Of a stretch of 64,000 bases of DNA, positions 1,209-46,044 are shown piece by piece. The position numbers and the translations under genes were made by a program. Every line of letters begins with the position of its first letter. The first letter of the stretch is position 1. The notes beneath the pieces are model-generated. The model made no database searches. It had not been told where the DNA came from and saw only the letters and a list, made by a program, of their open reading frames with translations. This DNA comes from Lentisphaeria bacterium (GTDB taxonomy: Bacteria > Verrucomicrobiota > Lentisphaeria > Victivallales > Victivallaceae): assembly GCA_017504585.1 (NCBI GenBank), contig JAFVQX010000190.1, positions 250 to 64,249 on the forward strand. Direction: 5' to 3'.

Positions 1209-1243
1209 CTTTATCAGACTTGTAGTATCAGACTACGCAAACA

Positions 1244-1840
1244 TTAGTTGTAGGTGATCTGGTCAAGTACTTTGTAATCGGAGACGCCAGAAACAAGTTG
1301 AGGCAGTCCGCCAACATGACCACCAAGGTAGCAAACATTGGTATTTTTAGGATGGCAGCCACTCATATCCCACCAAGTGGCTGCACCGGGATTGTCGCGA
1401 CCGACGATCACGCGCTTTTTGCCATTGGTATCATCGTCTTTGATCCAATTGAAATAGGAAGATTTAGCCGGTTTAGCCTCAGTAGCCCCCTCGCCTTCGC
1501 CTGAAGCAGCTACTGCGTCAGCAAAGTTGGTGCTGTCGCTGGGGCATTTGAAGCATTTTTCTGCAATGTCTTTAGTGAGGGTTGTGACATTCATGCCCAT
1601 AAAACCACCGAGGACCAACTTATCCCCAGGGGCGGTACCTCCGTAAACAATGCTATCCGCGAAGGGAAGAGCAGCATCCGGGCACGCAACATAATCTTTG
1701 TTGACGCCGGAGTACATGAATTCGCCGAGGCCGATCTGCTTGAGTTTGCTTACGCAGTTGGCACTGCGGGCGCGTTCACGGGCGGCGGAGAGGGCGGGCA
1801 GCAGCATGGCAGCCAAAATCGCGATGATAGCGATTACCAC
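1244..1840 (-). CDS. Prepilin-like (T2SS/T4P pseudopilin-like) protein, H-X9-GG variant, atypical N-terminus (paralog 1)
   Basis: It has the hydrophobic helix '[25 protein letters not shown]' typical of the prepilin-type N-terminal methylation domain. The C-terminus '[15 protein letters not shown]' gives H-X9-GG-H. There is no in-frame ATG (first start is GTG) and no G/FTLIE motif. Confidence 0.7.
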
Positions 1841-1901
1841 CGTAAGTGTGGTGACGGCAAGTGTCGCGGTGGCCGGGGCAAGCCCGACAGTACGGTAGAT
1901 A

Positions 1902-14125: not shown

Positions 14126-15883
14126 TTATTGGGCGGCTTTTATGCTCGAAACTGTGCCGCGGCGATAACGTTTTGAGCTTGCCGGTATAAGTTTATCGGG
14201 TATGGCGTCGTAACTTACCTGACCTACCACCAGAAGTTCGGTGTGTTTGACTGATTTGCTTTCGCTGCTGAATAAATACCCCAGATACGGTATATCCATC
14301 AGCCACGGGATACCCGATTTGCTGGTAACTTGGGATTGTTTTTTCAATCCGCCGATAATGAACTCGCCGCTGCCGTAGGGCAGACTGACATTCTGCACAA
14401 TGGTGCTGCCCGGAGCTATGCGGGGGGCGCCGTTGGATTGAAAACCCAGCAAACTGGTGTTGACCAGCTTGACGGTAAAGCGGGTTTCATCCAGCCCCAC
14501 CGCCACATTATTTACGCTCATGGAAAAACCGAATTGCTGCGAAAGCGCCGTAAGCTGTTGATTGCCTTTACCCACCCGGATGGGTTCCGCATCGGTCAGG
14601 GTTTCGCCGGTGACTTTGCCGATGATATTGCTCAAAAGTTCGTAAGCCCCCACTCCGGTGTTGGGGAAAAGCACTTCGCCGGTGGAGCTGGGTGCCGGCT
14701 GGGAAGTGTCGCTGTAAAAAATGTGGGTCATGCGCTCCAGTGTGGCAGTGGCAGAATTGCGGACACACATTTCGCCGGTCAGCATCACTTGAGCTTTGCC
14801 CATCGAGGTCAGGAAATCTATGTAGCGGCTGTTCCATTTGGGGTTGAAGTTATAAAAACTTGAGCGTTCGCTGCCCGCCGCCTGACTTAATCCTGTGGCA
14901 TCATAAAGAGCGTTCCAGTTGTTGCGGTAGCGGCCGCCGCCGGAAAAGAAGTCTGCACCCTGATTATTTTTCCAGGACTGAAAATCTATACCCATTTTAT
15001 CATCGTTTTCGCTGTCGATTTCGTAAACGGTTACTTTTATGCGCACTTGCGGGATGGGCACATCGTATTTTTTGAGCATTTCGGCAATGTTGTTTGCCGA
15101 GTAATTTTCCACGTCAAAAATCAGCCAGTTCAGATCCGGGTCGTACGCCACCAGATCCTGCCCCTGCCAGAGTTCGGTGGCATCGCTTATATTCATACCC
15201 ACATTCTGGATCAACGGCTGGAGATTTCTTGCCGGAACGAACTTGGGCATGTAGATAAAAAAGGGATTACCATAGCTTATGGCTCCCAGCGCCGGATCAT
15301 CCAGCGTGGCGACCAAGGTATCTATGCCCATGCCGTTGGGGTGATCCTTGAATCGGTATTCTTCGGCGCTGACCAGCAGCAGACCGGTGCCGTCAACATA
15401 TTTCAGACACTCCACTGCCGTATTGCTGCCCAGCTGGGCGACCGGGGTGTAGCCGACCTGGGCGTTGGGCGGATTGAGAGTCAACTGACTGACAGTGCTG
15501 GTAACCGGCAAAGTCACAGTATTGCCGTTGACTGTGGCGGTGTTGTTTACGTTGGTGGGATACTGCTGAACAAGCGACGTATTACCCACCCGCTTGCTTT
15601 GTACCATTTGCCGGAGATAATCGCGGAAGTTGTAGGCATCGACGTTTTTCACCAGATAAGTTTTGGTTATCACCCGCGGATCGTTGTTGTCGCGGATAAA
15701 GTGTACGGCTTCGGCATTTTCTTTAAGCGGCACCACGATCCGGGCCTCCACCCTTGTAGCGTCATAGCCGCCGGTATTATTATTGTTGCTGTCCCGGGGG
15801 ACGCCGGGGATGGCGGCTGCCGGCAGCATAAAAGTCATGCAGCAAGTGGCAGTACACATAAAAATCGTTTTATATATATTCAT
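14126..15883 (-). CDS. Secretin-family outer-membrane channel protein (paralog B)
   Basis: It has a signal peptide (MNIYKTIFMCTATCCMTFMLPAAA) and a secretin-domain start 'VRIKVTVYEIDSENDDKMGIDF'. The canonical secretin C-terminus is 'FIIGGLKKQSQVTSKSGIPWLMDIPYLGYLFSSESKSVKHTELLVV'. The start is taken at ATG 15883. Confidence 0.75.
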   Translation of the reverse strand: MNIYKTIFMCTATCCMTFMLPAAAIPGVPRDSNNNNTGGYDATRVEARIVVPLKENAEAVHFIRDNNDPRVITKTYLVKNVDAYNFRDYLRQMVQSKRVGNTSLVQQYPTNVNNTATVNGNTVTLPVTSTVSQLTLNPPNAQVGYTPVAQLGSNTAVECLKYVDGTGLLLVSAEEYRFKDHPNGMGIDTLVATLDDPALGAISYGNPFFIYMPKFVPARNLQPLIQNVGMNISDATELWQGQDLVAYDPDLNWLIFDVENYSANNIAEMLKKYDVPIPQVRIKVTVYEIDSENDDKMGIDFQSWKNNQGADFFSGGGRYRNNWNALYDATGLSQAAGSERSSFYNFNPKWNSRYIDFLTSMGKAQVMLTGEMCVRNSATATLERMTHIFYSDTSQPAPSSTGEVLFPNTGVGAYELLSNIIGKVTGETLTDAEPIRVGKGNQQLTALSQQFGFSMSVNNVAVGLDETRFTVKLVNTSLLGFQSNGAPRIAPGSTIVQNVSLPYGSGEFIIGGLKKQSQVTSKSGIPWLMDIPYLGYLFSSESKSVKHTELLVVGQVSYDAIPDKLIPASSKRYRRGTVSSIKAAQ

Positions 15884-15890
15884 AGTGAAA

Positions 15891-17318
15891 TCACTTTTCC
15901 ATGGCAAAAAGTTTACCGGGTTCAAGCTCGGCTGGTGCGGCGGCACTCAAGAGTTTGGCAGTTACGGTCAAATAGACTTTGCATTGCTCTTTTTGGGTGG
16001 TCGTGGTACTGAAAAGGTATTTCAGTATGGGTATTCTCGATAAAAAGGGTACCCCGATGACCTGTTCCACTTCCTGCTGACAATCCCATTGACCGAGAAT
16101 GAACTCTTTATCCAGATCCAGCAGTACGCTGGAATCCATACTGTTGGTATTGACCAGTTCTTCGCCGGTGTTGCTGCGCTCCAGTACGGTGGCGCTCTGG
16201 ATGCTGTAAGAAAAAAACACCGTGCCGGGATATTGATTGTAAGCACCGGGTTTATAAGGTTTTACCGAAAAAACTTCGCTGCTGTCATACCCCGCTTGCC
16301 CCTGACCGTAATGGAGATTGACAATAGGCTGATCGATCCGCAGATAAAGCTGATTGAACCCCTCCGGCAAATTCAGATTGCTGGCAGTCACCGAGGTTAT
16401 ATCGTTGTTGTTTTTGACGATATTTTGCAGCTGGGGGTTGAAAAATATCTCGTAACTTGCTGTATCGCTGTTGGATGCATTGAGCGTGGCGGTGCCGGTA
16501 ACGCTGGCATTGCCTTTTTGTGCCAGCATACGGATAAAGCTGGCATCAAACTGGGGCGCCACCAGAAATCCCCCCACCGGCCCGGAGATGGCAGTCAAAG
16601 CCGCCGAACCGCCGGAACTCAAACTAAAGGCGTCAAAAGCGGTCTGAAAGATGTTCAATCCGGGGCCGTTTTTCCACGCCAGATACTCTATGCCCAGATC
16701 CCGGAGGGTGCTTTCGCGTAATTCATAAAGTTTAAGCTCAAAAACGATCTGGGGCGCCGGGCGGTCGATAAAGGTGAGAAACTCAAAAACAAAAGGTGTG
16801 TTGGAGCTGTTGTCTTTCCAATAGATCTGGTTGGAATTCTGGTCGTAGGCGTAGACCGCCCCCGCCGGGCCGGTGCCGATGACAGAATTTACCAGCACAT
16901 TGATCAGGCCGGAACCGGAACGGTATTTGGGCTGATAAACGGCGCGGGTTATACCTGTACCGCGGATAATATCGCCGGGTTTTCTGCCGTCGATCCTGAT
17001 ATTGCGGTCCACTTTGGCAACAAAATCATCCACATAAGGCATCATCTTTTCGGGACAGCTTACGGTCAAAAGCTGTTCGTTGTTGCCGCCGAGGATGGTA
17101 TTGGCGCTGGAATTTATATTGTAACGCATGACCATACCCAGCACAAAAGGAACCAGATCGTTGGCTTGAACATATTTGAGCTTGTAGATCTTGGAAACCA
17201 TGTAATCCTGGGCATCGTCCTGGATCAGATGCACTTTCTGTACTGTTTTTTCCTGGGGTACAGCCAATAATGGCAGCATAATACCGAGTACTGCCGCTCC
17301 TGTAAAAAATTTTCTCAT
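15891..17318 (-). CDS. Secretin-family outer-membrane channel protein (paralog A)
   Basis: It has a signal peptide, 'FELKLYELRESTLRDLGIEY', and the C-terminus 'VIGVPFLSRIPILKYLFSTTTTQKEQCKVYLTVTAKLL'. Its N-terminal domain is alignable to paralog B. Confidence 0.7.
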   Translation of the reverse strand: MRKFFTGAAVLGIMLPLLAVPQEKTVQKVHLIQDDAQDYMVSKIYKLKYVQANDLVPFVLGMVMRYNINSSANTILGGNNEQLLTVSCPEKMMPYVDDFVAKVDRNIRIDGRKPGDIIRGTGITRAVYQPKYRSGSGLINVLVNSVIGTGPAGAVYAYDQNSNQIYWKDNSSNTPFVFEFLTFIDRPAPQIVFELKLYELRESTLRDLGIEYLAWKNGPGLNIFQTAFDAFSLSSGGSAALTAISGPVGGFLVAPQFDASFIRMLAQKGNASVTGTATLNASNSDTASYEIFFNPQLQNIVKNNNDITSVTASNLNLPEGFNQLYLRIDQPIVNLHYGQGQAGYDSSEVFSVKPYKPGAYNQYPGTVFFSYSIQSATVLERSNTGEELVNTNSMDSSVLLDLDKEFILGQWDCQQEVEQVIGVPFLSRIPILKYLFSTTTTQKEQCKVYLTVTAKLLSAAAPAELEPGKLFAMEK

Positions 17319-33072: not shown

Positions 33073-33191
33073 TTACATATCTGTTTGCGTTATTTCGCAT
33101 AATATGCATTATGTGAAGTGAAGATACAGTTGTAAGTTTTTTATTTATAAAATATTACAAATATAAAAAAATAAAATCGAATGGGAGTTTT

Positions 33192-33956
33192 ATGAAAAAA
33201 TCAATGATTTTCAGCTCAAGGACTTCACATAATGCATATTATGCGAAGCAACAGAAGTTTACGCTGATCGAACTCTTGGTCGTGATCGCCATTATTGCCA
33301 TTCTGGCGGCCATGCTGCTGCCGGCGCTGTCGGCTGCCCGGGAGCGTGCCCGTACTTCCAACTGTATAAACAACTGCAAGCAGATCGGTTTGGGCGTAAA
33401 TATGTATGCCGACAGTCACAATGATTATGTTCCGCCCCATGCAGTAGCCAATGTTGATTACCCCTCGGTAAAAATCTCATGGGCGGGGCTGATGTGGAAA
33501 GAAGGCTTGATCGACAGCGAAGTGATTTCCTGCCCCAACGCCCCGATTTCGGCGGGGGCTAAATTCAATAATTACCGTATGACCAGCCAGAGCAGCCAAA
33601 CCATTTCTTTTGATATACCTTACGGTATCCACCGTTGGCTTATCCGCAGTACGCTCTATAAGCGCGCCACACCAGCCAATCCGGCGGCAGCAATGCTTTA
33701 TGCCGACAGTGCCAATGGCGGTTCCTCCAAAGGCTACTATGTGGTTGCTGAAAGGTGGAGCGTTGTAGCCAAAAACAACTTCGGCTCTATTGCCTCCCGG
33801 CACGCCGGAGCTGCCAACTTTGTGTATTTTGACGGCCACGCAGAAACCATTATGACCAAATGCAATATCGAACCGGCAAATTATACTGCTGATACCAACC
33901 CCTATAATGATTTGCCCGCATTTGACACTACCGAAGAATTCTGGGGTGCCAAATAA
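33192..33956 (+). CDS. Prepilin-type N-terminal domain protein with H-X9-DG C-terminal motif (DUF1559/HX9DG pseudopilin-like)
   Basis: The N-terminus is '[33 protein letters not shown]'. The C-terminus is '[13 protein letters not shown]', exactly H-X9-DG. Confidence 0.85.
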
Positions 33957-33989
33957 CCTTTTTATGCTGAAACCAAGGAGATTTTTTAT

Positions 33990-34643
33990 ATGAAAAAACA
34001 ATTTTTTACCATTGCCGTATCCGCCCTCGCTCTTACCACGCTTTTTGCCGCTGAACCTACGCTGGATATTACCGGCGACAAAGCACAGGATGTGGTTGTG
34101 GCGGGCAAAACTTATAAATTTGATGGAGCAATCAAAGATGTTGCCGGAGCCAAAGTCATGGCTTTCGGCGAAAAACCCCTTGCGGTGCCCGGCAAAACTT
34201 TAGTGGACGAATCCGGCTCTATTGTTATGGAATACGCCATTGATACCAAAACCTCCAAAAGCGGCGCCCGTCCGCTGGTCTGTCTGCGGTTGGAAGGCAA
34301 CAAGCAGATAGCGTTTTTCACCTTCCACGGCAATCCGGTGATCCAGCTGCGGTTCGGCAATCCGGTTTTTGCCGACAGAAACATCAAACTTACGCCCAAA
34401 AAAATTCACCAGTCGGCAGTTACCTGGGATGGCAAGCAGATCAAGTTCTATTTGGATGGCAAACTTATTTACGAAGCCAAACAGCCGCTGCCGGTCAAGC
34501 CTGCCAACATTGCTCTCTTGACCGTAGGGCCTTTCCGCGATCAGTATTTTATCACGCCCACCTGGGATAACGACTGCTTTATGAAGCGGCTGCGGGTTTA
34601 CAACACTGCTCTTTCGGCAAAAGAAATTGCAGAACTCAAATAA
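33990..34643 (+). CDS. Secreted LamG-like domain protein
   Basis: It has a signal peptide and is clearly alignable to the N-terminal ~220 aa of the next gene ('WDGKQIKFYLDGKLIYEAKQ' vs 'WDGDKIRCYFDGKLIKEAKQ'; 'TPTWDNDCFMKRLRVYNTALSAKEIAEL' vs 'VPAWDNDTFIKSLRLYDRVLSNEEVAKL'). Confidence 0.75.
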   Translation: MKKQFFTIAVSALALTTLFAAEPTLDITGDKAQDVVVAGKTYKFDGAIKDVAGAKVMAFGEKPLAVPGKTLVDESGSIVMEYAIDTKTSKSGARPLVCLRLEGNKQIAFFTFHGNPVIQLRFGNPVFADRNIKLTPKKIHQSAVTWDGKQIKFYLDGKLIYEAKQPLPVKPANIALLTVGPFRDQYFITPTWDNDCFMKRLRVYNTALSAKEIAELK

Positions 34644-34673
34644 GTGATCCAAACATATTTTCCGAGGTTTTCC

Positions 34674-37600
34674 ATGAAGTTATCCAAACTCTTTACTGCC
34701 CTTTTCGTCTTTTTTGCGGCAGTGGCCATGATGGCAAAAGATGCCACGCTTGCCATTGATTTTTCCAGTGATAAATCAATCAAAGTCAACAACCAGACTG
34801 TTGAGTTTACCGGCACTCTCCACGAGATCGACGGCGAAAAACTTATGGCTTACGGCGATAAACCCTGCCAGATACCGGTCAAAGGGCTGGTGGGCAAACA
34901 AGGCACGATGGTTTTGGAGTTTGCTTTTGATAAACCCATGCGTAAAACCAAAAGTGTAGTCCGCACGCTGGCAGTACTCCGGGCCAACGGCAGAGAAGAG
35001 GTGGGGTTTTACTCCTTTGTCAACAACCCCATAGTGCAGTTCCGCTTTGCCAACGGCAGAAAGAATTTTTACGGCGGCACCAAAAAGCTCCCCGGCAGAA
35101 AGCTCCACAAAGCGGCGTTCAGTTGGGATGGCGACAAGATCCGCTGCTATTTTGACGGCAAACTTATCAAAGAAGCCAAACAGGATTTCCCCATTGCAGA
35201 CGGCAAGCTGGAAATTTTGAATATCGGGCCCCTCAAAGACCGCTGGTACCGGGTCCCGGCGTGGGATAACGATACATTCATCAAAAGTTTGCGGCTCTAC
35301 GACCGGGTGCTTTCCAACGAAGAAGTTGCCAAACTTGCCGGGGTGAAAAATAAGCTCATCCATCAGCGTTACCCCAGAGTTATGGCAGTTCCACAGCGGA
35401 ACAGCGAGTTTTCAGGCGGTATATCTTACATGCTTTTGCACCGCTTGAGAAACAGCGAAAAATCATGGGAACTGCCCAAAAACGACGCGGCATTTTCTTA
35501 CGATAAAGATAATCTTTATGTGGATTTTACTACCATTTTCCCCGCTAAAACTTCGGTTTTGAAAGGTCATTCGGCAGCCGATCCCGAATCCGGGGTGTGG
35601 GGCTTTGAATCTTTTGAACTGCACTTGCGCCACAGCGGCAAGCAATACTACTTTGGCGGTACCGCAGCGGGCGGCAAAGCCGATTCGCTGAAAAATGTGC
35701 CCAACTATAACCCCAAGTGGGATTACAGCTCGCATATTTCCATGCAGATAGATGATACATTTCTCTGGCAGGGCAAAGTGGCGATCCCGTGGAAAGCCAT
35801 CGGTTTGAGCAAGGTACCCCAAGAGCTTAAAATGAATTTCTGCCGCAGCTTTTTCAATACAGCTGTTACGGCGGCGACCGACCTTGCCGCCCAGCCGGGC
35901 AAAAGTTACTGGGCTGATGATGAATACTTTTTCACCCTCAAATTCCCCAAAAACGCGCCCTCACTTAAGGTAATCAGCCGGGGCAATCCCTCTTTTGGCA
36001 ACATAGAGCAGGAGTTTGAATTTGTTTCGCCGGTGGATCGCACGGTCAAGTTTTTCATTATTCAGGAAAGCAATTCCGGCTTGCTGACCCCGCAGGCGTT
36101 GGCGGCTCTTACCATCAAGCTCAAAGCCAACGAACCGGTTCGCCAAAAGGTGCAAACGCCTTTGACCATGCTCCACGCCGACCGGCTGGTGTATAAACTT
36201 ACTTCGGCAGACGAAAAAACCGTATTCTTTTCGCAGGATGTACCGCTGAAAATATCGGCTCAATACTTTACGGTAACACCCCTGTATTACGCCGGAAAAA
36301 TCGAACTTGCCGTAAAAACCGCCATCCTCAAAAGCAAATACGGCAACAGTGCCAAGCTGCTCATCACCCTCAAAGATCCTTCCGGCAAAGTGATTTACAA
36401 AAACAGTAAACTTGCCGACCTTGTCAGCATACCCTTTGCTGTTCAAAGTGTTCCCGGCTCCTATCTGCTGGAAATAACCGACGGCAAGGGCGAAGTCATT
36501 TCCGGTCAAACCCTCTATTACCCCGGCATCGGCGAATGGAGCAAACTTGACTTTGATATGACCAGAATAATCCCGCCTTATACCCCCATGACTTACGCTG
36601 AAAATGGCACTTTTACCGCCCAAGTGGTCAACCGGGATTATCGCTGGAACAAAGATGATTTCCTGCCTCAAACCATCACTTCCAGGGGCGAAAATCTCAT
36701 TAAAAGTGCGTCGATCCTGGTCAACGGTCAGGCAATTTCCGGAACGTTTCAGAAAAAATCCGCCTTGCCCCACCGTGCCGAATTTTCCGTTAAGGGCGGC
36801 AATGCCGACTGCCGGATAAATTCCGATGGCTGGCTGGAATTTGACGGCGTTCAGCACAATGTTGTGGAAGTTACGGCGTTGAAAAATATCCGTTCTTTGG
36901 AATTGCAGTTTGTGCTGCCCGCCAGATTTGCCAAATATCTGCACACTTCCGCCAACGGCTGGAGCAACAAGATCACAGCCAAGATCCCCAACGGCAAGTT
37001 TGAATATAAGTTTTATCCGGTGAATTTTATCGGCAACGAAGAGAAAGGTTTGTGTTTCTTTGCCGAAAGCTCCCGCAGCTGGAACGGCAGCGCCAAACCC
37101 TTTATCATTACCAAAAATGACCAAGACGCCGTCTTTACCGTTGTTATTGCCAAAAATCTGCAAGCCGGGGAAATGCTCACTTTCGATTACGGCTTGCTGG
37201 CTTCTCCGGTCAAACCCCAGCACCCCCGCTACCCCCTGAACACCGCCAGCTGGCAGTGGAACGTTACCATGAACCGCCCGGGCAAAACGCCCACAAGCTG
37301 GTGCGGGTATCTGCCCGGCGTAGGGGGGACTCTTGCCGACGCCTTTGCCGATGTGCCGGGCGTGGATAACGATACACTTGTCCGCAAAGTGCAGGAAAAT
37401 GTGGAAATTTTCAAAAAGAATAATGTCAAACCATTTATTTACAACCCCTTCTACACCTCCGACGAATACCCCGAAGTTCAGGCTTTCGGCAACGAGTGGG
37501 AGTGCGTGCCCCGTCAGGTCTGGACGGGCAAACGCAAAAACAAGACCCACACCCTGTTCCTGCTCTGCCCCGCCAGCCGGGGGGCGGATTTCTTCCTCTA

Positions 37601-38552
37601 CCGGGTCAGAGAATTTGCCCGCAAGACCAAGATCCACGGTGTGAACTTTGACTTCGGCATCGTGCCCCATTGCGACAATAATCACCACGGTTGTTACAGC
37701 CGCACGCCGCTTCTGGCATACCGCAACTTCTACCGCAAGCTGGCGATGATCTTAATGGATAACGGGGTGGAAGATTACATTATCCATGTGCATAACACCA
37801 GTTCCGTACAGCTGCCCAGTTATACATTTGTAACTCACTTGCTCAATGGCGAACACATCCGCCAGCAATCCAGTACCCTCATGCACAACGGCAAAGATAT
37901 TCTTGACAGCTACCCGGTGGAGATGTTTGCCTGCGAGTTGAGCAGTCTGCCCTTTGGCATAAACAACGCTGTTTATCAGTCCAATGATAATTTGATGAAG
38001 CAATTCGGCGGCGGCAAGGAAGATGAGGAACTCTACAAATTGCGGATAACCCGGGCATTTTTGAGCGGCACGCTGCTGCACAACACCATAATCTCCCTCA
38101 ACCGCTGTCACCACGGTATCTTTGATAAAATCGTGCGTATCTACGATAAATTCAATGTTCCGGCAGCTGAATTCATCGGCTATTGGAGCGAAAAGGCTCC
38201 CAAAGTGGTGCAAGGTAAAGAGGTGTACGCCAGCGTATACAAACACCCCACGGAAAATAAACTTTTGGCAGTAATTTCCCACATCGGCAATCAGCGGCTG
38301 GATCAGGAAGTAGTGGTCAAATTTGCGCCGGCAGCGCTGGGCATGAAAACTTTCAAAACCGCCAGAGAATTGCTGGAAGCCGACGATCCGGAATATTCCG
38401 AACTTTACAAGTTGCGCAAAGCCAACGATTTGCCTATTGTCAGAATTCAGCTCAAGTGGCAAAACCCCGGCATAAAGCTTTTGGAGTTCAAAAACAACAC
38501 CATAAAACTCAAGCTCCCCGCCCACAGCTTTGCCATAGTGGAACTGCAGTAA
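34674..38552 (+). CDS. Secreted ~1290-aa protein: LamG-like N-domain, CBM9-like domain, large putative glycoside-hydrolase-like C-terminal region
   Basis: It has a signal peptide 'MKLSKLFTALFVFFAAVAMMA' and a LamG-like N-domain. 'FSYDKDNLYVDF...FELHLRH' is CBM9-like. The remainder is unassigned by eye. The start is at ATG 34674. Confidence 0.6.
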   Translation: MKLSKLFTALFVFFAAVAMMAKDATLAIDFSSDKSIKVNNQTVEFTGTLHEIDGEKLMAYGDKPCQIPVKGLVGKQGTMVLEFAFDKPMRKTKSVVRTLAVLRANGREEVGFYSFVNNPIVQFRFANGRKNFYGGTKKLPGRKLHKAAFSWDGDKIRCYFDGKLIKEAKQDFPIADGKLEILNIGPLKDRWYRVPAWDNDTFIKSLRLYDRVLSNEEVAKLAGVKNKLIHQRYPRVMAVPQRNSEFSGGISYMLLHRLRNSEKSWELPKNDAAFSYDKDNLYVDFTTIFPAKTSVLKGHSAADPESGVWGFESFELHLRHSGKQYYFGGTAAGGKADSLKNVPNYNPKWDYSSHISMQIDDTFLWQGKVAIPWKAIGLSKVPQELKMNFCRSFFNTAVTAATDLAAQPGKSYWADDEYFFTLKFPKNAPSLKVISRGNPSFGNIEQEFEFVSPVDRTVKFFIIQESNSGLLTPQALAALTIKLKANEPVRQKVQTPLTMLHADRLVYKLTSADEKTVFFSQDVPLKISAQYFTVTPLYYAGKIELAVKTAILKSKYGNSAKLLITLKDPSGKVIYKNSKLADLVSIPFAVQSVPGSYLLEITDGKGEVISGQTLYYPGIGEWSKLDFDMTRIIPPYTPMTYAENGTFTAQVVNRDYRWNKDDFLPQTITSRGENLIKSASILVNGQAISGTFQKKSALPHRAEFSVKGGNADCRINSDGWLEFDGVQHNVVEVTALKNIRSLELQFVLPARFAKYLHTSANGWSNKITAKIPNGKFEYKFYPVNFIGNEEKGLCFFAESSRSWNGSAKPFIITKNDQDAVFTVVIAKNLQAGEMLTFDYGLLASPVKPQHPRYPLNTASWQWNVTMNRPGKTPTSWCGYLPGVGGTLADAFADVPGVDNDTLVRKVQENVEIFKKNNVKPFIYNPFYTSDEYPEVQAFGNEWECVPRQVWTGKRKNKTHTLFLLCPASRGADFFLYRVREFARKTKIHGVNFDFGIVPHCDNNHHGCYSRTPLLAYRNFYRKLAMILMDNGVEDYIIHVHNTSSVQLPSYTFVTHLLNGEHIRQQSSTLMHNGKDILDSYPVEMFACELSSLPFGINNAVYQSNDNLMKQFGGGKEDEELYKLRITRAFLSGTLLHNTIISLNRCHHGIFDKIVRIYDKFNVPAAEFIGYWSEKAPKVVQGKEVYASVYKHPTENKLLAVISHIGNQRLDQEVVVKFAPAALGMKTFKTARELLEADDPEYSELYKLRKANDLPIVRIQLKWQNPGIKLLEFKNNTIKLKLPAHSFAIVELQ

Positions 38553-38675: not shown

Positions 38676-38695
38676 TTGTTGAAACGATTAAACAA
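38676..38695. promoter_or_regulatory. LacI-family operator-like imperfect palindrome
   Basis: TTGTTGAAACGATTAAACAA is self-complementary at 16/20 positions. It shares the core TGAAACG.TT with the sites at 40071, 41106 and 41135. Confidence 0.6.
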
Positions 38696-38748: not shown

Positions 38749-39981
38749 ATGAAAATTGCCAGCGTGCGAGCGATCATTCCCAGTGAAGTCGGAGATCTTA
38801 TTTCCGGATACGGCCCCAATTTCGGAACTGTTGCCAAGCATGATGAATTGGAAGTAAACGGCTTTTGTCTGGATGACGGCAAAAGCCGGGCTCTTTTTTT
38901 GAGTTTTGATATTCTGGGACTTGACCGGGATGTGGTTCTGGAACTCCGCAGCAGTTGCGCCCAAATTCTGAATTGTCCTGAAAGTGCGGTATTGTTGAGC
39001 TGTACTCACACTCACGGTGGGCCTGCCTATCGCAGTAACGCCGCCCAGGAGCGCAATCATGAACGCACCCGGCAGTTGATCGGGGCAACGGTCGAAGCGG
39101 TGAAAAATATCCGGGCGCAGGACTTTGCGGAAGTTGATGTTTTCAGCTATTCCAACATCTGTTGTGCCAATACCAACCGCCGTTATCTTACGCCCGATAA
39201 TAAATGTTACTTTGTGCCGCATCACATTCAGCTGGAACCGTTGGCAAATGGTGTTTGCGACCCGGAAGTGGGGGTCTTGTTTTTCCGGCCCAAAAATTCG
39301 GATTATGCAGTGGAAGTCTTTGTCAATTACGCGGCTCACCCGCTGGCATCGCATGCCCCGGGGCTGGCGGGGCACTCCATTACCGCAGATTTTCCGGCAG
39401 AGGTACGCAAGTATATACAAAATGCCATCGGCGGACATTGTTCCTATTTTTCCGGAGCCGCCGGCGACCAGTTCCCGGTGGATTCCCAGGTGGGCGAACT
39501 GGGGGTGGAAACTATTGCCAAACCACTTTCGGCCGCGGTGATCAAGGCTTGTATAGATATTCGTGCCAATCTTGAGCGTTACAAGGTGCAAGATCCGGAA
39601 TTACGCTCAAAACTGGTGCCGGTGGAAGGCAAGATCCGCCCCAACGCCGCCAATCGCGTGTGGTGCCGTAATGGCGATAAATACACTATGGAATTGCAGC
39701 TGATTTCCATTGGCAGCGATGTTTGTATGATCGGCGTACCCGGCGAACTTTTGGGCGAAGTTGGCCTGGAAATGAAATGGCACTCGCCGTTCAGACATAC
39801 TTGGATAGCCTATAATTCAACAGATTATGTAAGTTATCTTTGTCATGCCAATGCCATATTTTCCGGCGGTTACGAAGCCAGAATGCAGCAGTTTGAACCC
39901 CGCATCGGGTTGAAACTGGTCAACAGCGCGGTGGATGCGATGTTTGAAATATGTCCGGAAATAAAAACTCCGGAATGGTGA
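38749..39981 (+). CDS. Neutral/alkaline ceramidase-like hydrolase (N-terminal-domain family), cytoplasmic
   Basis: The pattern 'GYG...KHDELEVNGFCLDDG...LFLSFDILGLD...LLSCTHTHGGP' resembles the neutral ceramidase family. There is no signal peptide. Confidence 0.5.
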   Translation: MKIASVRAIIPSEVGDLISGYGPNFGTVAKHDELEVNGFCLDDGKSRALFLSFDILGLDRDVVLELRSSCAQILNCPESAVLLSCTHTHGGPAYRSNAAQERNHERTRQLIGATVEAVKNIRAQDFAEVDVFSYSNICCANTNRRYLTPDNKCYFVPHHIQLEPLANGVCDPEVGVLFFRPKNSDYAVEVFVNYAAHPLASHAPGLAGHSITADFPAEVRKYIQNAIGGHCSYFSGAAGDQFPVDSQVGELGVETIAKPLSAAVIKACIDIRANLERYKVQDPELRSKLVPVEGKIRPNAANRVWCRNGDKYTMELQLISIGSDVCMIGVPGELLGEVGLEMKWHSPFRHTWIAYNSTDYVSYLCHANAIFSGGYEARMQQFEPRIGLKLVNSAVDAMFEICPEIKTPEW

Positions 39982-40027: not shown

Positions 40028-40056
40028 TTGACAAAACAGTTTTTTTGTATTATACT
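40028..40056 (+). promoter_or_regulatory. Sigma70-type promoter of the lacI-family gene
   Basis: The element is TTGACA, a 17-nt spacer and TATACT. Confidence 0.55.
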
Positions 40057-40070
40057 GTAAAAGCGGGGCT

Positions 40071-40085
40071 TTGAAACGATTAAAT
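40071..40085. promoter_or_regulatory. LacI-family operator-like site (autoregulation)
   Basis: TTGAAACGATTAAAT lies just downstream of the -10 element. The TGAAACGATTAAA core is identical to the site at 38676-38695. Confidence 0.55.
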
Positions 40086-40115: not shown

Positions 40116-41081
40116 ATGGTAACCCTTAAAGATGTGGCACGGGAGCTGGGACTTTCCACCGGCACTGTGTCGATGGCACTGAACAATTCACCGCGGATCA
40201 GTGCGGAAACGACTAAACAGGTGCATGCTGCTGTCCGGGCATTGGGGTATACACCCAATAACTTCGGTCGGGGGTTGCGTTCCGGCAAAAGCCGTCTGGT
40301 TGGTTATTTCTCCAATCATCTGGATGCTTCGTTTCTTACCGAGATCTTTCTGGGGGCGGGCGAAAAGCTTGCTGAACGCGAATATGGTATACTTTCCTGC
40401 TGGCCGGCAAAGCGTTCGGCAGGCAATATATCGCACAATTTGGATATGATGCTTTCCAAAAATGTCGATGGTATAATTTTTGTCGGCGGCGACTGGTTGT
40501 CGCTGGGCGGTGAGGCGTTTCAAATGCTGGAAGATCGCAACATACCATTTGTTTTTTGCAGCCGCCATTGTCAGGAATATAATGTACCTTTTATTGTGAC
40601 CGACGACCTGCTGGGCGGCGAAATGGCTGCCAACTGTCTGCTGGAGCACGGTCACCGGGTCATATTGTGCGAATACAACGACTCCATCGAACGGCGGCTA
40701 CGGGGAAATCTGAACGCGATCAACCGTTACAGCGATGCCAAAAGTGTAATGTTTTATCAGGCAGAAGAAGTTCCGGAACTGATAAAAAAGCATCATGCCA
40801 CGGCTGTGCTGACTTTTTCTGACCGGCACGCTTTTGATGTGATGCATGTTTTGCGGCAGGCCGGATACCGTATTCCGGAAGATATATCAATTATCGGCTA
40901 TGATGATATAGAATATGCCGCCCGCCCGGAATTTGACCTGACCACCATACGGCAGCAGCGCAAGAAACTTGGTGAACTGGTAGCAGAATACATCTTGGAT
41001 CGCCTGGATGGCAAAGAGCCGGAAAAAGCACAGCTTCTGCCACCGGAGCTGATAATGCGCGGGTCGGTAAAGGTGATGTAA
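40116..41081 (+). CDS. LacI-family transcriptional regulator
   Basis: The HTH is 'VTLKDVARELGLSTGTVSMALNNSPRISAETTKQVHAAVRALGYTPN', followed by a periplasmic-binding-protein-like sugar-binding fold. Confidence 0.9.
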   Translation: MVTLKDVARELGLSTGTVSMALNNSPRISAETTKQVHAAVRALGYTPNNFGRGLRSGKSRLVGYFSNHLDASFLTEIFLGAGEKLAEREYGILSCWPAKRSAGNISHNLDMMLSKNVDGIIFVGGDWLSLGGEAFQMLEDRNIPFVFCSRHCQEYNVPFIVTDDLLGGEMAANCLLEHGHRVILCEYNDSIERRLRGNLNAINRYSDAKSVMFYQAEEVPELIKKHHATAVLTFSDRHAFDVMHVLRQAGYRIPEDISIIGYDDIEYAARPEFDLTTIRQQRKKLGELVAEYILDRLDGKEPEKAQLLPPELIMRGSVKVM

Positions 41082-41105
41082 TAATGATTTTTTTTATGTT
41101 GTTTA

Positions 41106-41119
41106 TTGAAACGTTTCAA
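41106..41119. promoter_or_regulatory. LacI-family operator, perfect 14-bp palindrome
   Basis: TTGAAACGTTTCAA is a perfect palindrome. Confidence 0.7.
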
Positions 41120-41134
41120 TAGTTCAATTATTTG

Positions 41135-41147
41135 TTGAACCGTTCAA
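41135..41147. promoter_or_regulatory. LacI-family operator, perfect 13-bp palindrome
   Basis: TTGAAC-C-GTTCAA lies 16 bp after the first operator and upstream of the pseudopilin-led operon. Confidence 0.65.
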
Positions 41148-41207
41148 TAAAAATGATATTTTTTGTAGTATAACTGATAAAAAATCAACAAGCAACAGGA
41201 GGAAGAA

Positions 41208-42047
41208 ATGAACATCAGAAAGAGTTTCACTCTGATCGAGCTATTGGTGGTTATTGCCATCATAGCTATTCTGGCAGCGATGCTGCTGCCGGCTTTGAGT
41301 GCAGCCCGCAGCCGCGCCAAAACCGCCAACTGTGCCAACAACCTCAAGCAGATCGGGCTGGCACAAACTATGTACTCTGCAGATTTCGGAGACTGGATCA
41401 TCACAGCATTTCCCAAGCCGTGGAACAGCGATCAGGCATGGTTCTGTATTTTAAGCGGCAAAACATTTTACGGCACCAAACTCAATGACGGTTACGGTTT
41501 GGATATGACCGGTTCCCAGGCCGCTCCCAGCAAAGTGGACAACTTTCAATGCCCCGGCGAAGCTGTGCCCTACAAACTTAAAACTTCCGGTCATGTGACA
41601 ACGGAGTTTTCTTTTACTCATTACATAACAAACTGTGCGGTTACCGGCAGTTTTTTGGGAGGATCCAGTGACCGTAACTCTGCAAGCCTCGGAGCCAATT
41701 GTACCCAAAGTTACCGTCATTTGAACGGTGTGAGCGATCCCTCGCTGGCGATGTTTGCCGGCGACAGTTATCGTTATAACGCTCTTACCGGTGCACGCCC
41801 GTGTCATTTTGCATTCCGTCACGGTGCCGGAGAAAGCCGTAAATTCGGTGAAAATTACACCAACAACGATGGTATTTCCAAGGGAAGTACCGGTAACTTT
41901 ACCTTTATTGACGGCCACGTGGAAGAGCTGACGCTTGACGAACTTATGAGTCACAAAGATGAAATGGGCCGCTCCGGGCATGACGGAACGGCCAGCGACT
42001 GTCTGCGTTCGGGCATCTGGATAGATAAAGTAACGGCATATCCGTGA
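41208..42047 (+). CDS. Prepilin-type N-terminal domain protein, degenerate H-X9-DG tail (K-X9-DGH)
   Basis: The N-terminus is '[33 protein letters not shown]' and the C-terminus is '[16 protein letters not shown]'. Confidence 0.8.
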
Positions 42048-42080
42048 TAACAAGTTATAAACTTTTAAGGATAAAAAAGT

Positions 42081-45008
42081 ATGAAAAAATTCAATCTCAA
42101 AAGTTGCCTGACTGCCGCAGTATGTTTTACCGCTGCGGTACTTACAGGTTCCAACATCATCCCCAATGGGGATCTGAGCTATAAAATCAACAATGTACCG
42201 GCATTCTGGAGTCTGGGCAAAAAAAATGCAGTTTACAGCGCAACTGCCTGCGAGGGGAAACCGGCATTGGTGCTGACCGACGGCGGTATGGCACGGCAGT
42301 TTGCATCGTTTCGGATCGTGCCCAAAGCCAAATACCGTTTGAGTGCCAAAGTGCGTTTGAGTCAGGGCAATGCCAACGGCAGTGCTGATATTATGGTGGT
42401 CAATCAGAACTGGAAGAGTTCCAGCGGTTTGATGAAAATCAAACCCACTGATAAGTGGCAAACCATCAGCCGGGAGTTTTACGGCTTTACTTCTTCGGAT
42501 AAAACTTACGGTGTAGTGGTTCGAGCCAGAGCCATCCAGGGCAAATTTGAAGTTGCCGACATCAAATTGGAAGCTTTGACCGCCGAAGGCAAAGCCAACA
42601 GCCGTTCGCTGTTTTCCACCCCCGGCAGCCGTGAAAGCCTCAATACCAATGGTGCTTTGGATGCCGACCAAAGCGAGTTTCCTGCTTACTGGGCAACTGA
42701 TGGCGGCGCTGAATTCCTCCGCGGCGGCGGGCCCAACGGCAAAAATGCTTTGCGTTTTGATACAGTAAAAGTCAAAAAAGCCGCTGTCCGTCAGGATCGG
42801 GCAATGATCCTCAATGCCGGAAAACGCTACCGGGTCAGCATGATGGTCAAAGCGGTCAACTTCAAAGCCCGGCGGATGAGCTACACGATCTTTGCCGACA
42901 GCTGGGCAAAAGAAGCCGGTGTGGTCAGAGTGCCGCAAAATTGTGATTGGACTCTGGTGGAAGCGATCGTTTTTGCACCCAAGTGCAAAGCCAATTACGG
43001 CAGCGGTCTGGCAATGCGTGCTGATGCCAGGAGTTCCGGCTATATCGACATAGCTGATTTGCGGATCGAACCGCTGGACGAAGCTGCCGCCAATGGTGCA
43101 TATTCGCTGCTGCGCGGGCTGGAAAAAAACCGTCTGGTGGTTTTGAGCAAACTTGCAGAAATTCCGGTCAATGCTCCGGGTATTTCCGCTCTGTGGTTTG
43201 GCAAACTTGCTGAAAATGCCAAATTGGAATACCGCATAGATAACAAAAACTGGCAGCAGCTTGCACCAGCTGAGTCCGGCAGATACAATATAAAACTTAC
43301 CGGGATCAAACTTGGCAAACACACCTTTGAGTTCCGCTGCGGCGAATTCAAGCGCAAATGGGATTTTACAGTTGTTCCGCCGGTGCCCAAGGTAAAAAGC
43401 AAGCGGCTGAACAATCTGGTGCGTGAACTGGAGCCGCTGCAGCTGAAAGATGGCGAAAGCAGAGAATTTATCAATCCGCGTACCGGATGGGTCTATTTTA
43501 TTTTACCCAACGCCGATGCCACGCTGGAAGTTGCCACTCAAAAACCGGTCCGCAGCGCCGGTCACGCATATCTTACCCGTGGAAAACACAAGATAACACT
43601 CAAAGGAGCTTCCGGCAAAGTCATTATCCGTCTGATCCCGGAAATCTACACCTATCAGCTTGCCGGCGGTCCTTATTTGAAGGTTGCCCCAAAGAATGAT
43701 TACAAGCTTATCAAGAAATATCTGCTGCCTTACATCAACAGTTACGCCCAGCCCGGTAAAGGCAACCTGACCGCCAAAGAATGGGAAATCATCTATTCGA
43801 CCAATCTGCAGCGGCAGCACGGCAACCATATAGCCAAATACCCCACCAGCCAGGCGATGATCGACGGGGTAAACAACAACGAAGGCTTGAATGATCCGGC
43901 TTTTGTGGGTATAACCTTTGACGAATTTCCCGCCGGTGATGTAACTTTGATGGCGCGTTACAACGAAGCACACGATTTTATCAAACGCCCGGAAGGACAT
44001 CGTTTCTTTTACTGCCTGTACGGCAAGCTTGCTGCCGGTGGTATATCAGCAGAGTTTATTTCCAACGCTATCAATTCCGGGCATGGCGACAGCATCATAA
44101 AGTACGAATCCTACTGCCAGCCGGTGCCGACCGAAGAAGCTGCCAGATCTTATATCAGAAACATCATTGTTGAAACCGCCAAATCGCTGGAACGCACCTT
44201 TCCCGGAGCGGTGAAAAATCTCTGTATGTATATGATCAACAGCAATGTGCCGTCAACATTGACCGCGGCGTATCTTACCAATGTGGATTTGAAATACTAT
44301 CTGGATATGCAGTTCAATCTGATCGCCAACGATCCGGCGCTGGAAGGTTTGGCAATGGCGGGCAACTGGGGCAGTAATTACTCTGACAACGAGATGGTGC
44401 GTTGGACAGGCCGGCTTTTCCGGCACTATCTGATCGAAGGCAACACCGAGCCGCTGGCTCCCAGATACGGCTTTACCTACAATGTTAATTTTGTAAAAAA
44501 TGCCGACTTTGAAAAAGGACTCACCGGTTGGCAGGTGGAGGGTACAGTAAAAACCGGTCATACTCCCCTTTATGGCCGAACTATGGAAAAACGCTGGGCG
44601 GCGCCCAATGGGATCGGCGACTACTACGCAATTCTTGAACGCGGCAGCAAGCCCAATGTGATGTCGCAGAAAATGCAAGGGATCAAAAGTGGCAAATATT
44701 ATAAAATACAGTATATTACCAGCGATGCAGAAGATGTGATGCTTACCGGCAAAGGCAAACCCGGCGACCTTTCCATCGATTGCGAAATCGACGGCGCAGA
44801 GTTTGTGCCCAAAGAAACCATGAAATACCGTGCTCATGGCCCGTTCCGCAAGATCGATAAAAACATGTTCAAAGTCAATCTTGATTGCCGGGTGTTCAAG
44901 GCTGTCAAGGATGATCCGGTGATCCGTTTTACCGATAAATCAGTCAAACCCGGGCGTAAAACCGCTCTTAACTACATATATATAACCCCATTTTTTGAGG
45001 AAGAATAA
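42081..45008 (+). CDS. Secreted 975-aa protein with repeated CBM4_9-like carbohydrate-binding modules and a central unassigned (putative hydrolase) region
   Basis: It has a signal peptide. Modules begin 'NIIPNGDLS...FW', 'NTNGALDADQSEFPAYW' and 'VKNADFEKGLTGWQVEG', each with 'KYRLS/RYRVS/YYKIQ' strands typical of CenC-like CBMs. Confidence 0.55.
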   Translation: MKKFNLKSCLTAAVCFTAAVLTGSNIIPNGDLSYKINNVPAFWSLGKKNAVYSATACEGKPALVLTDGGMARQFASFRIVPKAKYRLSAKVRLSQGNANGSADIMVVNQNWKSSSGLMKIKPTDKWQTISREFYGFTSSDKTYGVVVRARAIQGKFEVADIKLEALTAEGKANSRSLFSTPGSRESLNTNGALDADQSEFPAYWATDGGAEFLRGGGPNGKNALRFDTVKVKKAAVRQDRAMILNAGKRYRVSMMVKAVNFKARRMSYTIFADSWAKEAGVVRVPQNCDWTLVEAIVFAPKCKANYGSGLAMRADARSSGYIDIADLRIEPLDEAAANGAYSLLRGLEKNRLVVLSKLAEIPVNAPGISALWFGKLAENAKLEYRIDNKNWQQLAPAESGRYNIKLTGIKLGKHTFEFRCGEFKRKWDFTVVPPVPKVKSKRLNNLVRELEPLQLKDGESREFINPRTGWVYFILPNADATLEVATQKPVRSAGHAYLTRGKHKITLKGASGKVIIRLIPEIYTYQLAGGPYLKVAPKNDYKLIKKYLLPYINSYAQPGKGNLTAKEWEIIYSTNLQRQHGNHIAKYPTSQAMIDGVNNNEGLNDPAFVGITFDEFPAGDVTLMARYNEAHDFIKRPEGHRFFYCLYGKLAAGGISAEFISNAINSGHGDSIIKYESYCQPVPTEEAARSYIRNIIVETAKSLERTFPGAVKNLCMYMINSNVPSTLTAAYLTNVDLKYYLDMQFNLIANDPALEGLAMAGNWGSNYSDNEMVRWTGRLFRHYLIEGNTEPLAPRYGFTYNVNFVKNADFEKGLTGWQVEGTVKTGHTPLYGRTMEKRWAAPNGIGDYYAILERGSKPNVMSQKMQGIKSGKYYKIQYITSDAEDVMLTGKGKPGDLSIDCEIDGAEFVPKETMKYRAHGPFRKIDKNMFKVNLDCRVFKAVKDDPVIRFTDKSVKPGRKTALNYIYITPFFEEE

Positions 45009-45011
45009 AAG

Positions 45012-45956
45012 ATGAAAAGAATTCAAATCAGAGCCACTTTTCTGGACGAAGTCAGTACAGATATCCCCCATCATAACTGGGGGTATGAGGAGTGGGATCA
45101 GGATTTTCAGGCAATGAAAGCTATCGGGATCGATACGGTGGTAATGATCCGCTGCGGTCTGGAAAAGTTCCTTGCCTATCCCTCGGAGCTGTTGATCAAA
45201 GAACGCGGTGCCTACCGCCCCCCGGTGGACTGGGTGGAAATGTTTTTGGAGCTGGCTGGCAAATATGGTATGCGGTTTTTTTTCGGTACCTATGTTGGGC
45301 AGCGTTGGTGGGGCGATAAGCGTATCGACTTTGCCACCGAGTGCGCTTTGGATAAACGCATCGTTGCCGAAGCCTGGGAGCGTTACGGTAATTATCCGGC
45401 ATTTCAAGGCTGGTATTTGAGCAAAGAAATTGCCACCTATCATGCCGAAATCGTAGATGAATTTGTGGAGCTTGGGCAATACTGCAAAAAGATCTCCGGT
45501 AATCTGCCGATACTTATATCGCCCGGAATGCTGGGCCGCAAAGCCTGGTACAATAACGAACCAGAAGCTCACGATCTTGACTTTGAAAAGCATTTGCGCG
45601 ACTGGGATATGATCATGGGCAAGATCTCCGGCACGGTGGATATTGTGGCATTTCAGGATGGTCATCTTATTTATGAAGAATTGCCGCAAGCTTTGCAAAT
45701 CAATAAAGCTCTGGCGGATAAGCACGGCATTGAATGCTGGACAAATTCGGAAAGTTTCGACCGGGATATGCCCTTCCGTTTCCCGCCGATCAAGTGGGAA
45801 AAGCTGCTGCTGAAATTGCGTGCAGCTCAAAGCGTGGGCGTGGAACGGGCGATCACATTCGAGTTTTCGCACTTTATGAGCCCCAATTCCATGTGGCAGT
45901 CGGCACATGGATTATATAAGCGTTATCAGGAATACCTTGCCGGCAAGTTTGACTGA
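45012..45956 (+). CDS. DUF4434-family protein (TIM-barrel glycosidase-like)
   Basis: 'IRATFLDEVSTDIPHHNWGYEEWDQDFQAMKAIGIDTVVMIR' matches my recollection of the DUF4434 N-terminus. It starts 4 nt after the upstream stop. Confidence 0.65.
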   Translation: MKRIQIRATFLDEVSTDIPHHNWGYEEWDQDFQAMKAIGIDTVVMIRCGLEKFLAYPSELLIKERGAYRPPVDWVEMFLELAGKYGMRFFFGTYVGQRWWGDKRIDFATECALDKRIVAEAWERYGNYPAFQGWYLSKEIATYHAEIVDEFVELGQYCKKISGNLPILISPGMLGRKAWYNNEPEAHDLDFEKHLRDWDMIMGKISGTVDIVAFQDGHLIYEELPQALQINKALADKHGIECWTNSESFDRDMPFRFPPIKWEKLLLKLRAAQSVGVERAITFEFSHFMSPNSMWQSAHGLYKRYQEYLAGKFD

Positions 45957-45982
45957 TAACGCTTGCAGTAATATTTTCCGGA

Positions 45983-46027
45983 GCTGTTGCAAACCGAAAT
46001 TCACTTCAGTTTGCAACAGCGTTTTTC
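45983..46027 (+). terminator. Rho-independent terminator
   Basis: A perfect 12-bp stem GCTGTTGCAAAC/GTTTGCAACAGC is followed by GTTTTTCT. Confidence 0.8.
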
Positions 46028-46044
46028 TGTTCTTTGTGGCGGTT

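Follow-up and report, generated by a model that had tools for sequence, protein, structure and literature searches.

In Klebsiella, the pul secreton is a maltose-induced type II secretion system (T2SS) with pullulanase, in which the whole machine and all pseudopilins form one operon for one enzyme. In Ruminococcus and in the chitin-regulated pili of Vibrio, the expression or function of pilins is also tied to polysaccharide. The cassette analysed here lies in a stretch of 64,000 nucleotides of contig JAFVQX010000190.1 from a Lentisphaeria bacterium (the window, with positions counted from its first letter) and is arranged as lacI, two palindromes, a pseudopilin gene, a gene for a 975-aa protein, a DUF4434 gene and a terminator. 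As in the pul secreton, a pseudopilin gene that would be sugar-induced stands together with the gene of a secreted, putatively glycan-degrading enzyme. Unlike the pul secreton, a single pilin gene accompanies the enzyme and the machine must be encoded elsewhere.

Pilins regulated by xylan were reported for Caldicellulosiruptor bescii (bioRxiv 10.1101/614800) and dextran-binding fibres for Planctomycetes (PMC5394234). Such glycan-regulated or glycan-binding type IV pili (T4P) rely on a pilus locus with a single pilin or a few, and not on one divergent pilin per enzyme operon. The polysaccharide-utilisation loci (PULs) of Bacteroidota are similar to the cassette in being modular, each with a regulator that senses the substrate, with enzymes that are secreted and with a non-catalytic component specific to the substrate, and in occurring in many copies per genome. 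However, the non-catalytic component here is pilin-like and regulation is by cytoplasmic repressors of the LacI or GntR type. No susC-like TonB-dependent transporter or susD-like domains were found in the cassette genes or the scanned neighbours, so that the cassette does not qualify as a PUL of the Bacteroidota type.

The pilin shares its N_methyl and DUF1559 N-terminal region with the DUF1559 or H-X9-DG family (PF07596 'SBP_bac_10', TIGR04294) of the PVC superphylum. It differs from that family in belonging to a Lentisphaerota branch that lacks Gly/Ala at position -1, in having Lys in place of the motif His, and in being encoded upstream of large carbohydrate-active enzyme (CAZyme) genes. 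In planctomycetes, N_methyl+SBP_bac_10 proteins are a massively expanded family of unknown function; for one planctomycete, their genes were noted to neighbour those of signal-peptide proteins frequently, and in Tuwongella they fractionate with membranes (PMC8567305). The literature searched on DUF1559, H-X9-DG and Lentisphaerota pilins contained no functional study and described neither pilin-CAZyme operons nor loss of Gly at -1. The features of the cassette and of its regulatory region are as follows.

38679 to 38692, plus strand: operator-like site TTGAAACGATTAAA, 57 nt upstream of the 410-aa gene
38749 to 39981, plus strand: gene for a 410-aa protein without signal peptide, with the same operator-like 14-mer upstream as lacI
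40028 to 40056, plus strand: promoter-like site for lacI, TTGACA-17 nt-TATACT, 11 of 12 matches
40071 to 40084, plus strand: operator-like site TTGAAACGATTAAA, just downstream of the lacI -10 hexamer
40116 to 41081, plus strand: LacI-family repressor, 321 aa (PF00356 and PF13377)
41104 to 41121, no strand: operator O1, perfect 18-nt palindrome TATTGAAACGTTTCAATA, containing TTGAAACGTTTCAA (41106-41119)
41135 to 41147, no strand: second palindrome TTGAACCGTTCAA, of which only the right half GTTCAA is kept in orthologous loci
41208 to 42047, plus strand: pseudopilin of the DUF1559 / H-X9-DG superfamily, 279 aa (N_methyl, DUF1559)
42081 to 43385, plus strand: N-terminal part of the 975-aa protein, with signal peptide, two CBM_4_9-like sandwiches and an Ig-like sandwich
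43386 to 45008, plus strand: conserved C-terminal core of the 975-aa protein, residues 436-975, putative catalytic module
45012 to 45956, plus strand: DUF4434 protein, 314 aa, without signal peptide (PF14488; PDB 4H41)
45983 to 46036, plus strand: intrinsic terminator with a 12-bp perfect stem, a 14-nt loop and a U-rich tail

The cassette showed the properties of a single LacI-controlled, pilin-led catabolic unit, as had been proposed in a preliminary description of this DNA, and this is supported by the conservation of the block and of O1, by the short gaps and the sole terminator, and by the carbohydrate-related proteins encoded downstream of the pilin. Close relatives of the 975-aa protein (75-82% identity) were found in gut and rumen metagenomes, one of them named 'Lentisphaeria bacterium'. 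The order and spacing of the LacI-pilin-975-aa-DUF4434 block were kept in the loci of six relatives and persisted through about 20-30% protein divergence, while the flanking genes varied. On the left, a 409-aa gene with a glutamine synthetase gene was present in one group and a glycoside hydrolase family 3 (GH3) gene in another; the 409-aa product is the counterpart of the 410-aa protein and is encoded upstream of lacI in three loci (L001-L003), while the GH3 gene takes its place in L004. On the right, genes for an FKBP, an extracytoplasmic function (ECF) sigma factor or an isocitrate dehydrogenase were found.

Within the unit, the lacI stop codon was separated from O1 by 22 nt, the pilin ATG was preceded by AGGAGG, and a Shine-Dalgarno sequence was present at every cistron. 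The open reading frame (ORF) of the 975-aa protein followed the pilin after 33 nt and began with a Sec-type signal peptide, both as previously described, and the distance from its stop codon to the DUF4434 ATG was 3 nt and not the 4 nt given before. There were no hairpins between the pilin, 975-aa and DUF4434 genes, and we infer from this arrangement that the three genes are co-transcribed. The perfect 12-bp stem that had been proposed to close the unit was found again (45983-45994 pairing with 46009-46020, then GTTTTTCTGTTCTTTG) with a folding energy of -24.3 kcal/mol (z = -2.9 relative to shuffled sequences), in the space where the DUF4434 and nitroreductase genes converge. The ORFs of the 975-aa and DUF4434 proteins share a reading frame and are separated by TAA AAG (45006-45014). 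A read-through fusion of the two was considered and rejected because the frames differ in the orthologous locus L001, and the shared frame is therefore probably a coincidence and not programmed read-through.

The LacI protein matched PF00356 with 55.3 bits and PF13377 with 85.7 bits and so has both the helix-turn-helix (HTH) and the effector domain of LacI regulators. Its best NCBIfam matches were of the RbsR, PurR and CytR types, all under the equivalog cut-offs. Both palindromes noted earlier ahead of the pseudopilin-like gene were present at 41106-41119 and 41135-41147, although the first of them, reported as TTGAAACGTTTCAA, proved to be the inner part of the full 18-nt palindrome. With its central CG and its position near the presumed regulated promoter, TTGAAACGTTTCAA has the form of a LacI/GalR operator and is regarded as a putative site. 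The O1 core TTGAAACG(T/A)TTCAA formed a conserved island in the otherwise diverged lacI-pilin spacer (L001, L004-L006). The site at 38679 has two mismatches to O1 and is identical to the 14-mer before lacI, and TTGAAACGATTAAA after the lacI promoter was invariant in 3/3 loci. The TTGACA-17-TATACT promoter before lacI was also conserved in L001 and L004.

The window contained 54 palindromes with 6-nt arms, hardly more than the mean of 39 after shuffling, so that the second palindrome alone carries little weight and the case for operator control rests on O1 (9-nt arms; the second-longest perfect palindrome in the 64 kb), on its conservation and on the related sites at 38679 and 40071. The -35 region of the pilin promoter may lie partly within the second palindrome. 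The O1-like site after the lacI promoter suggests that lacI is autoregulated, and since an O1-related 14-mer precedes both lacI and the 410-aa gene, these two and the pilin operon would form a small three-part regulon to which the 410-aa gene probably belongs. The anatomy as a whole is that expected for repression by LacI. The cytoplasmic 410-aa protein had no Pfam or NCBIfam match, and its PDB matches were insignificant, among them one to the N-terminal part of neutral ceramidase (PDB 4WGK, E = 0.43). The longest perfect palindrome in the window was AATTTTGAACGCGCGCGTTCAAAATT (26 nt, 763-788), which carries TTGAAC and GTTCAA half-sites like those of LacI operators around a longer GC spacer.

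The placing of a pilin gene first in a catabolic operon had been called unusual, and this holds against classical T2SS/T4P biology but not within Lentisphaerota, where the layout is common. A total of 80 genome loci encoding pilin relatives were surveyed with genes called by a longest-ORF heuristic, signal peptides judged by a crude hydrophobicity rule and taxa taken as named in the sequence records. A gene was counted as paired when a protein of at least 500 aa was encoded within 120 nt downstream on the same strand. This was the case for 14/28 Lentisphaerota pilin genes (13 of the partners with a signal-peptide-like start), for 15/251 other Lentisphaerota genes in the same loci and for 0/29 pilin genes of Verrucomicrobiota and Planctomycetota. 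The comparison of pilin with other Lentisphaerota genes gave an odds ratio of 15.7 (Fisher p = 1e-8). In Verrucomicrobiota and Planctomycetota, the close downstream gene encoded 110-300 aa, often 110-180 aa, which is a different conserved pairing; other pilin genes of these phyla were followed by unrelated genes.

The proteins encoded downstream of Lentisphaerota pilins were mostly CAZyme-like (heparinase II/III-like, DUF4838, GH78, GH123-like, pectate-lyase/beta-helix, Polysacc_lyase and carbohydrate-binding module (CBM) or LamG proteins). The gene upstream of the pilin encoded a GntR- or LacI-HTH regulator with Peripla_BP_3 in 9/10 loci. The order regulator, pilin and large enzyme was also seen for three paralogous pilins encoded on long contigs, with a regulator of the GntR/LacI or AraC type and a heparinase II/III-like, DUF4838 or GH123-like enzyme. 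One of the three is from Victivallis vadensis, where the module consists of GntR, pilin and heparinase-like enzyme. Loci with two enzymes carried two pilins in alternation (L013, L030, L086), and the pilin stop and enzyme start overlapped in several loci (gaps of -4 and -1), which is expected for proteins made in fixed proportion. No shared N- or C-terminal sorting motif was seen among the enzymes downstream of pilins. Overall, the regulator-pilin-CAZyme layout is real, general and apparently undescribed in the literature searched.

The pilin matched N_methyl with 30.8 bits (cut-off 21.2), TIGR02532 with 21.7 bits (cut-off 16.3) and DUF1559 (PF07596) with 27.3 bits (cut-off 23.3), the last only over profile positions 2-32. 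Its short basic leader MNIRKS, Phe(+1), Glu(+5) and hydrophobic helix are those of a class III signal peptide. Relatives of the pilin gave at least 8,000 matches, and paralogues with 35-43% identity over about 87% of the length were named DUF1559 or H-X9-DG proteins of Victivallales, which places the pilin in the DUF1559 family. In an alignment of 30 pilin sequences, the invariant parts were a stretch that includes F7 and A17 (both nearly invariant), two Cys, the Arg-His of FRHG, and DGH. The earlier label of a degenerate K-X9-DG pseudopilin was apt: the head carries K-X9-DGH with Lys in place of the His of H-X9-DG, and TIGR04294 gave no match to the cassette pilin at E ≤ 0.01. The other pilin of the window (33192-33956) matched TIGR04294 with 23.4 bits against a cut-off of 19. 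The AlphaFold2 model of the cassette pilin (mean predicted local distance difference test score, pLDDT, of 88) showed a continuous helix over residues 9-59 and a head domain. A Foldseek search of the head against the PDB gave no match with E < 1, and the best pilin match was PilA1 of C. difficile (E = 5).

Gly at -1 is the key determinant for classical prepilin peptidases. In the cassette pilin, the residue at -1, before FTLIE, is Ser (41223-41225). Gly or Ala occupied this position in 4/49 Lentisphaerota pilins and 7/119 closest homologues, against 43/43 in Verrucomicrobiota and Planctomycetota (survey drawn from loci L014-L093 and homologues P0040-P0159; -1 codon of the other window pilin at 33255-33257), and Ser, Arg, Asn and Lys dominated among the 119 closest homologues. 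Either the peptidase of the phylum has relaxed specificity or the pilins remain uncleaved. The loss of Gly/Ala at -1 coincides with the lineage in which these pilin genes stand upstream of CAZyme genes.

The first 28 mature residues of the two window pilins were identical, while 17/28 codons differed synonymously. Gene conversion was rejected as the cause of the identical N-termini since the synonymous differences rule out a recent event. These residues are under strong purifying selection, and a partner or machine common to the pilins is the likely selective cause. The heads were hypervariable and many pairs scored only 20-40 bits. The heparinase-linked pilins (L011, L012, L029) were mutual best matches and the GH123-linked ones weakly so. 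Since pilins of the same enzyme family thus tend to be mutual best matches, this suggests, in a small sample with low scores, that pilin-enzyme pairs duplicate and diverge together.

The model of the 975-aa protein (pLDDT 89; predicted template modelling score 0.80) showed a signal peptide, two jelly-roll sandwiches (about residues 25-166 and 200-331), an Ig-like sandwich (about 350-432), and then a sandwich, an alpha/beta barrel (about 530-800) and a further sandwich. It had been described as a multi-CBM protein with three CenC-like modules, and this was in part correct. The whole protein passed CBM_4_9 (36.7 bits; cut-off 25.9) and the two N-terminal modules scanned alone matched it weakly (19.8 and 16.1 bits), but the C-terminal sandwich that had been taken as the third CBM matched nothing when scanned alone. 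The multi-CBM label also missed that most of the protein is a C-terminal barrel-containing core of approximately 540 aa. This core (residues 436-975) recurred behind other N-terminal modules (CBM_4_9, Laminin_G_3, CBM9 or none) in Lentisphaerota, Armatimonadetes and Hydrogenedentes, and 1,297 cluster representatives matched its profile at E ≤ 0.001, 687 of them at E ≤ 1e-30. E615, Y678, D742 and H782 were invariant in its barrel region.

The core had no Pfam, NCBIfam or PDB sequence match, and neither the 975-aa protein nor its family profile found anything significant among PDB sequences. In a Foldseek search with the full-length model, the CBM22 tandem 4XUP was among the top matches (E = 3.5e-11). 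CBM-like sandwiches and multidomain GH2/GH101 enzymes, all with low TM-scores, dominated this search. Overall, the modelled architecture fits a secreted glycan-active enzyme. The 975-aa protein proved unrelated to the 1302-aa GH123-like protein encoded in the first pilin operon. The contexts of distant core members varied (GH38, BNR_2, PTE, SSF) and did not point to one substrate. Two distant members (L009 and L095) each lay near a gene of the PTE family (PF02126) and a sodium:solute symporter (SSF) gene, and these neighbours may hint at a substrate or product of the core family.

The DUF4434 protein matched PF14488 with 228.7 bits over profile positions 3-282 of 283 and is therefore a full-length member of the family. 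It aligned with PDB 4H41 ('putative alpha-L-fucosidase') over 306 residues (E = 4e-97). Its residue 4 aligned to residue 32 of 4H41, which has approximately 28 more N-terminal residues; these are absent from the window protein and presumably form a signal peptide. As had been stated, the N-terminus of the window protein lacks a signal peptide, and it contains no hydrophobic stretch, so that a cytoplasmic location is predicted. The literature searched on DUF4434, PF14488 and 4H41 contained no biochemical study of the family. Both the 975-aa and the DUF4434 protein were carbohydrate-related by hidden Markov model (HMM) or structure, which was one of the two points on which the preliminary description had made its proposal depend.

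The reading preferred here, at a confidence that falls somewhat short of even, is that the cassette is a self-contained sugar-inducible glycan module in which the pilin is a dedicated partner that exports or displays the adjacent enzyme. Without inducer, LacI would bind O1 and the related sites before lacI and the 410-aa gene, and the second palindrome at the promoter could aid LacI repression in this strain. A sugar derived from the substrate would release LacI, and a single transcript would then encode the pseudopilin, the 975-aa enzyme and the DUF4434 protein. The 975-aa enzyme, with its two CBM-like modules and barrel-containing core, would be exported by Sec, and the cytoplasmic TIM-barrel-like DUF4434 protein would finish imported oligosaccharides. 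The invariant N-terminal helix of the pilin would dock into a shared T2SS/T4P-type machine (genes for two secretins are present 24 kb upstream), and the operon-specific head would bind the enzyme, which would pass the outer membrane or be shown on the fibre. What is observed is the anatomy, the domain content, the pairing across the phylum and the conservation of cassette and operators; repression, co-transcription, the enzyme activities, the processing and assembly of the pilin and its contact with the enzyme are what we infer.

The dedicated-partner reading is favoured because of the one-to-one alternation of pilins and enzymes, the translational coupling and the signal peptides on most of the partners. 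The conserved block and operators, the pairing general in Lentisphaerota, the identical N-termini of the window pilins and the two secretin genes also speak for it. Several points weigh against it. Cleavage of the pilin and assembly into a fibre are uncertain with Ser at -1, and a signal peptide was seemingly absent in 3/21 downstream enzymes (DUF4838 of L013, GH78 of L037 and a 673-aa protein of L095). The operon has no transporter that would bring sugars to the DUF4434 protein in the cytoplasm. The tendency of heads to cluster by enzyme family was seen in a small number of sequences with low scores, and distant members of the core family (P0009, P0010, P0024) had no adjacent pilin. In addition, we know of no T2SS that needs or uses a cargo-specific pseudopilin.

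The main rival is that the pilin fishes for glycans, its head binding the glycan of the operon so that a mixed retractile fibre pulls polymers to or through the outer membrane, and it would then fill the role of SusD, surface glycan-binding or solute-binding proteins. This is possible, though we consider it unlikely. These operons encode no other binding or uptake component, the hypervariable heads on a constant helix also fit it, and it tolerates the 3/21 enzymes without signal peptide. There are also precedents in glycan-regulated and glycan-binding pili (bioRxiv 10.1101/614800; PMC5394234). However, one pilin per enzyme in alternation (L013, L030, L086) suits an enzyme partner better, and the pilins of the same family in Verrucomicrobiota and Planctomycetota are not beside CAZyme genes. 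The head model was without detectable similarity to solved lectin or CBM folds, and the missing Gly at -1 puts fibre assembly in doubt for this rival as well.

That doubt is taken up by an explanation in which the protein is a pilin-derived anchor, an uncleaved bitopic inner-membrane protein whose periplasmic head would act locally, for example by chaperoning or tethering the enzyme or by handing bound ligand to a transporter whose gene lies elsewhere. Its appeal lies in the rarity of Gly/Ala at -1 in Lentisphaerota pilins (4/49) and their closest homologues (7/119) compared with the 43/43 elsewhere, in the membrane fractionation of the Tuwongella N_methyl+SBP_bac_10 proteins (PMC8567305) and in the legacy Pfam name SBP_bac_10, which hints at a solute-binding role. 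Yet we consider this explanation improbable. A plain membrane anchor would have no need for 28 invariant residues under strong purifying selection, Phe1 and Glu5 included. Ser, the commonest residue at -1, together with Lys/Arg at -2 or -3, could also suit a peptidase of relaxed specificity, an argument drawn from archaeal class III signal peptidases.

Finally, that there is no specific link, with abundant mobile pilin paralogues landing upstream of highly expressed secreted-protein genes or with a general envelope role under shared regulation, is in keeping with the huge size of the family (at least 8,000 matches) and with distant core members without an adjacent pilin, but it is highly improbable given the 15.7-fold enrichment (p = 1e-8), the order and spacing conserved across about 20-30% protein divergence, the overlapping starts and stops, and the regulator-pilin-enzyme triplet that is consistent among loci.

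Other parts of the window that touch on pilins or secretion are as follows.

14126 to 15946 and 15891 to 17318, minus strand: two tandem secretin genes for signal-peptide proteins of 606 and 475 aa with C-terminal secretin domains
33192 to 33956: first pilin gene, in an operon at 33192-38552

Among the scanned ORFs of the window, the two secretins were the only T2SS/T4P machinery found and there was no peptidase, ATPase or platform gene. The two secretins are candidates for the outer-membrane channel of many pilin-like proteins. The first pilin operon consists of the pilin gene, a gene for a 217-aa Laminin_G_3 protein and a gene for a 1302-aa GH123-like protein. This operon has a TTGACA/TATAAT-like promoter of its own and lacks a LacI-type operator, and is therefore regulated differently from the second. 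A 31-nt inverted repeat (33089-33119 and 33222-33252; 94% complementary, with 102 nt between the arms) flanks the ribosome-binding site and ATG of the first pilin gene together with the part that encodes the leader. The repeat could serve as an invertible on/off switch or fold into a long-range 5' RNA hairpin. Inversion at the repeat would take away the in-frame start codon of the first pilin, and neither orientation of the junction was present among the metagenome contigs searched. A gene for a YhcG-type PDDEXK nuclease (DUF1016) and an Abi_2 (abortive-infection-like) gene lie on the minus strand at the left edge of the window (41-2810) and may form a small defence islet.

Few paralogous families in PVC bacteria are as large as those of the DUF1559 / H-X9-DG pilin-like proteins. 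What is new here is the apparently undescribed gene architecture together with two uncharacterised enzyme families; the pilin itself belongs to the known DUF1559 superfamily. The locus flags two probably carbohydrate-active families for enzyme discovery in gut and rumen, the core of approximately 540 aa and DUF4434. At the level of the operon, the picture of a module that plays the role of a PUL but is built differently, as a sugar-inducible unit, is well supported. The layout may connect glycan enzymes with a pilus or secretion machine in a manner that has not been described. A bolder and rather doubtful idea is that of a 'programmable' pilus or secretion fibre, with hundreds of swappable heads on one invariant helix, non-Gly processing and one CAZyme per co-regulated pilin. 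If true, the cell would load only the adaptors for the glycans that it currently senses, and the system would be a third polysaccharide-utilisation architecture beside Sus-like PULs and ATP-binding cassette (ABC) transporter loci and would provide the first cargo- or substrate-specific pseudopilins. One pilin per sugar-sensing repressor and secreted enzyme offers a tractable handle on the function of DUF1559 and on cargo recognition by the T2SS, and the same type of module is present in a cultured relative, Victivallis vadensis.

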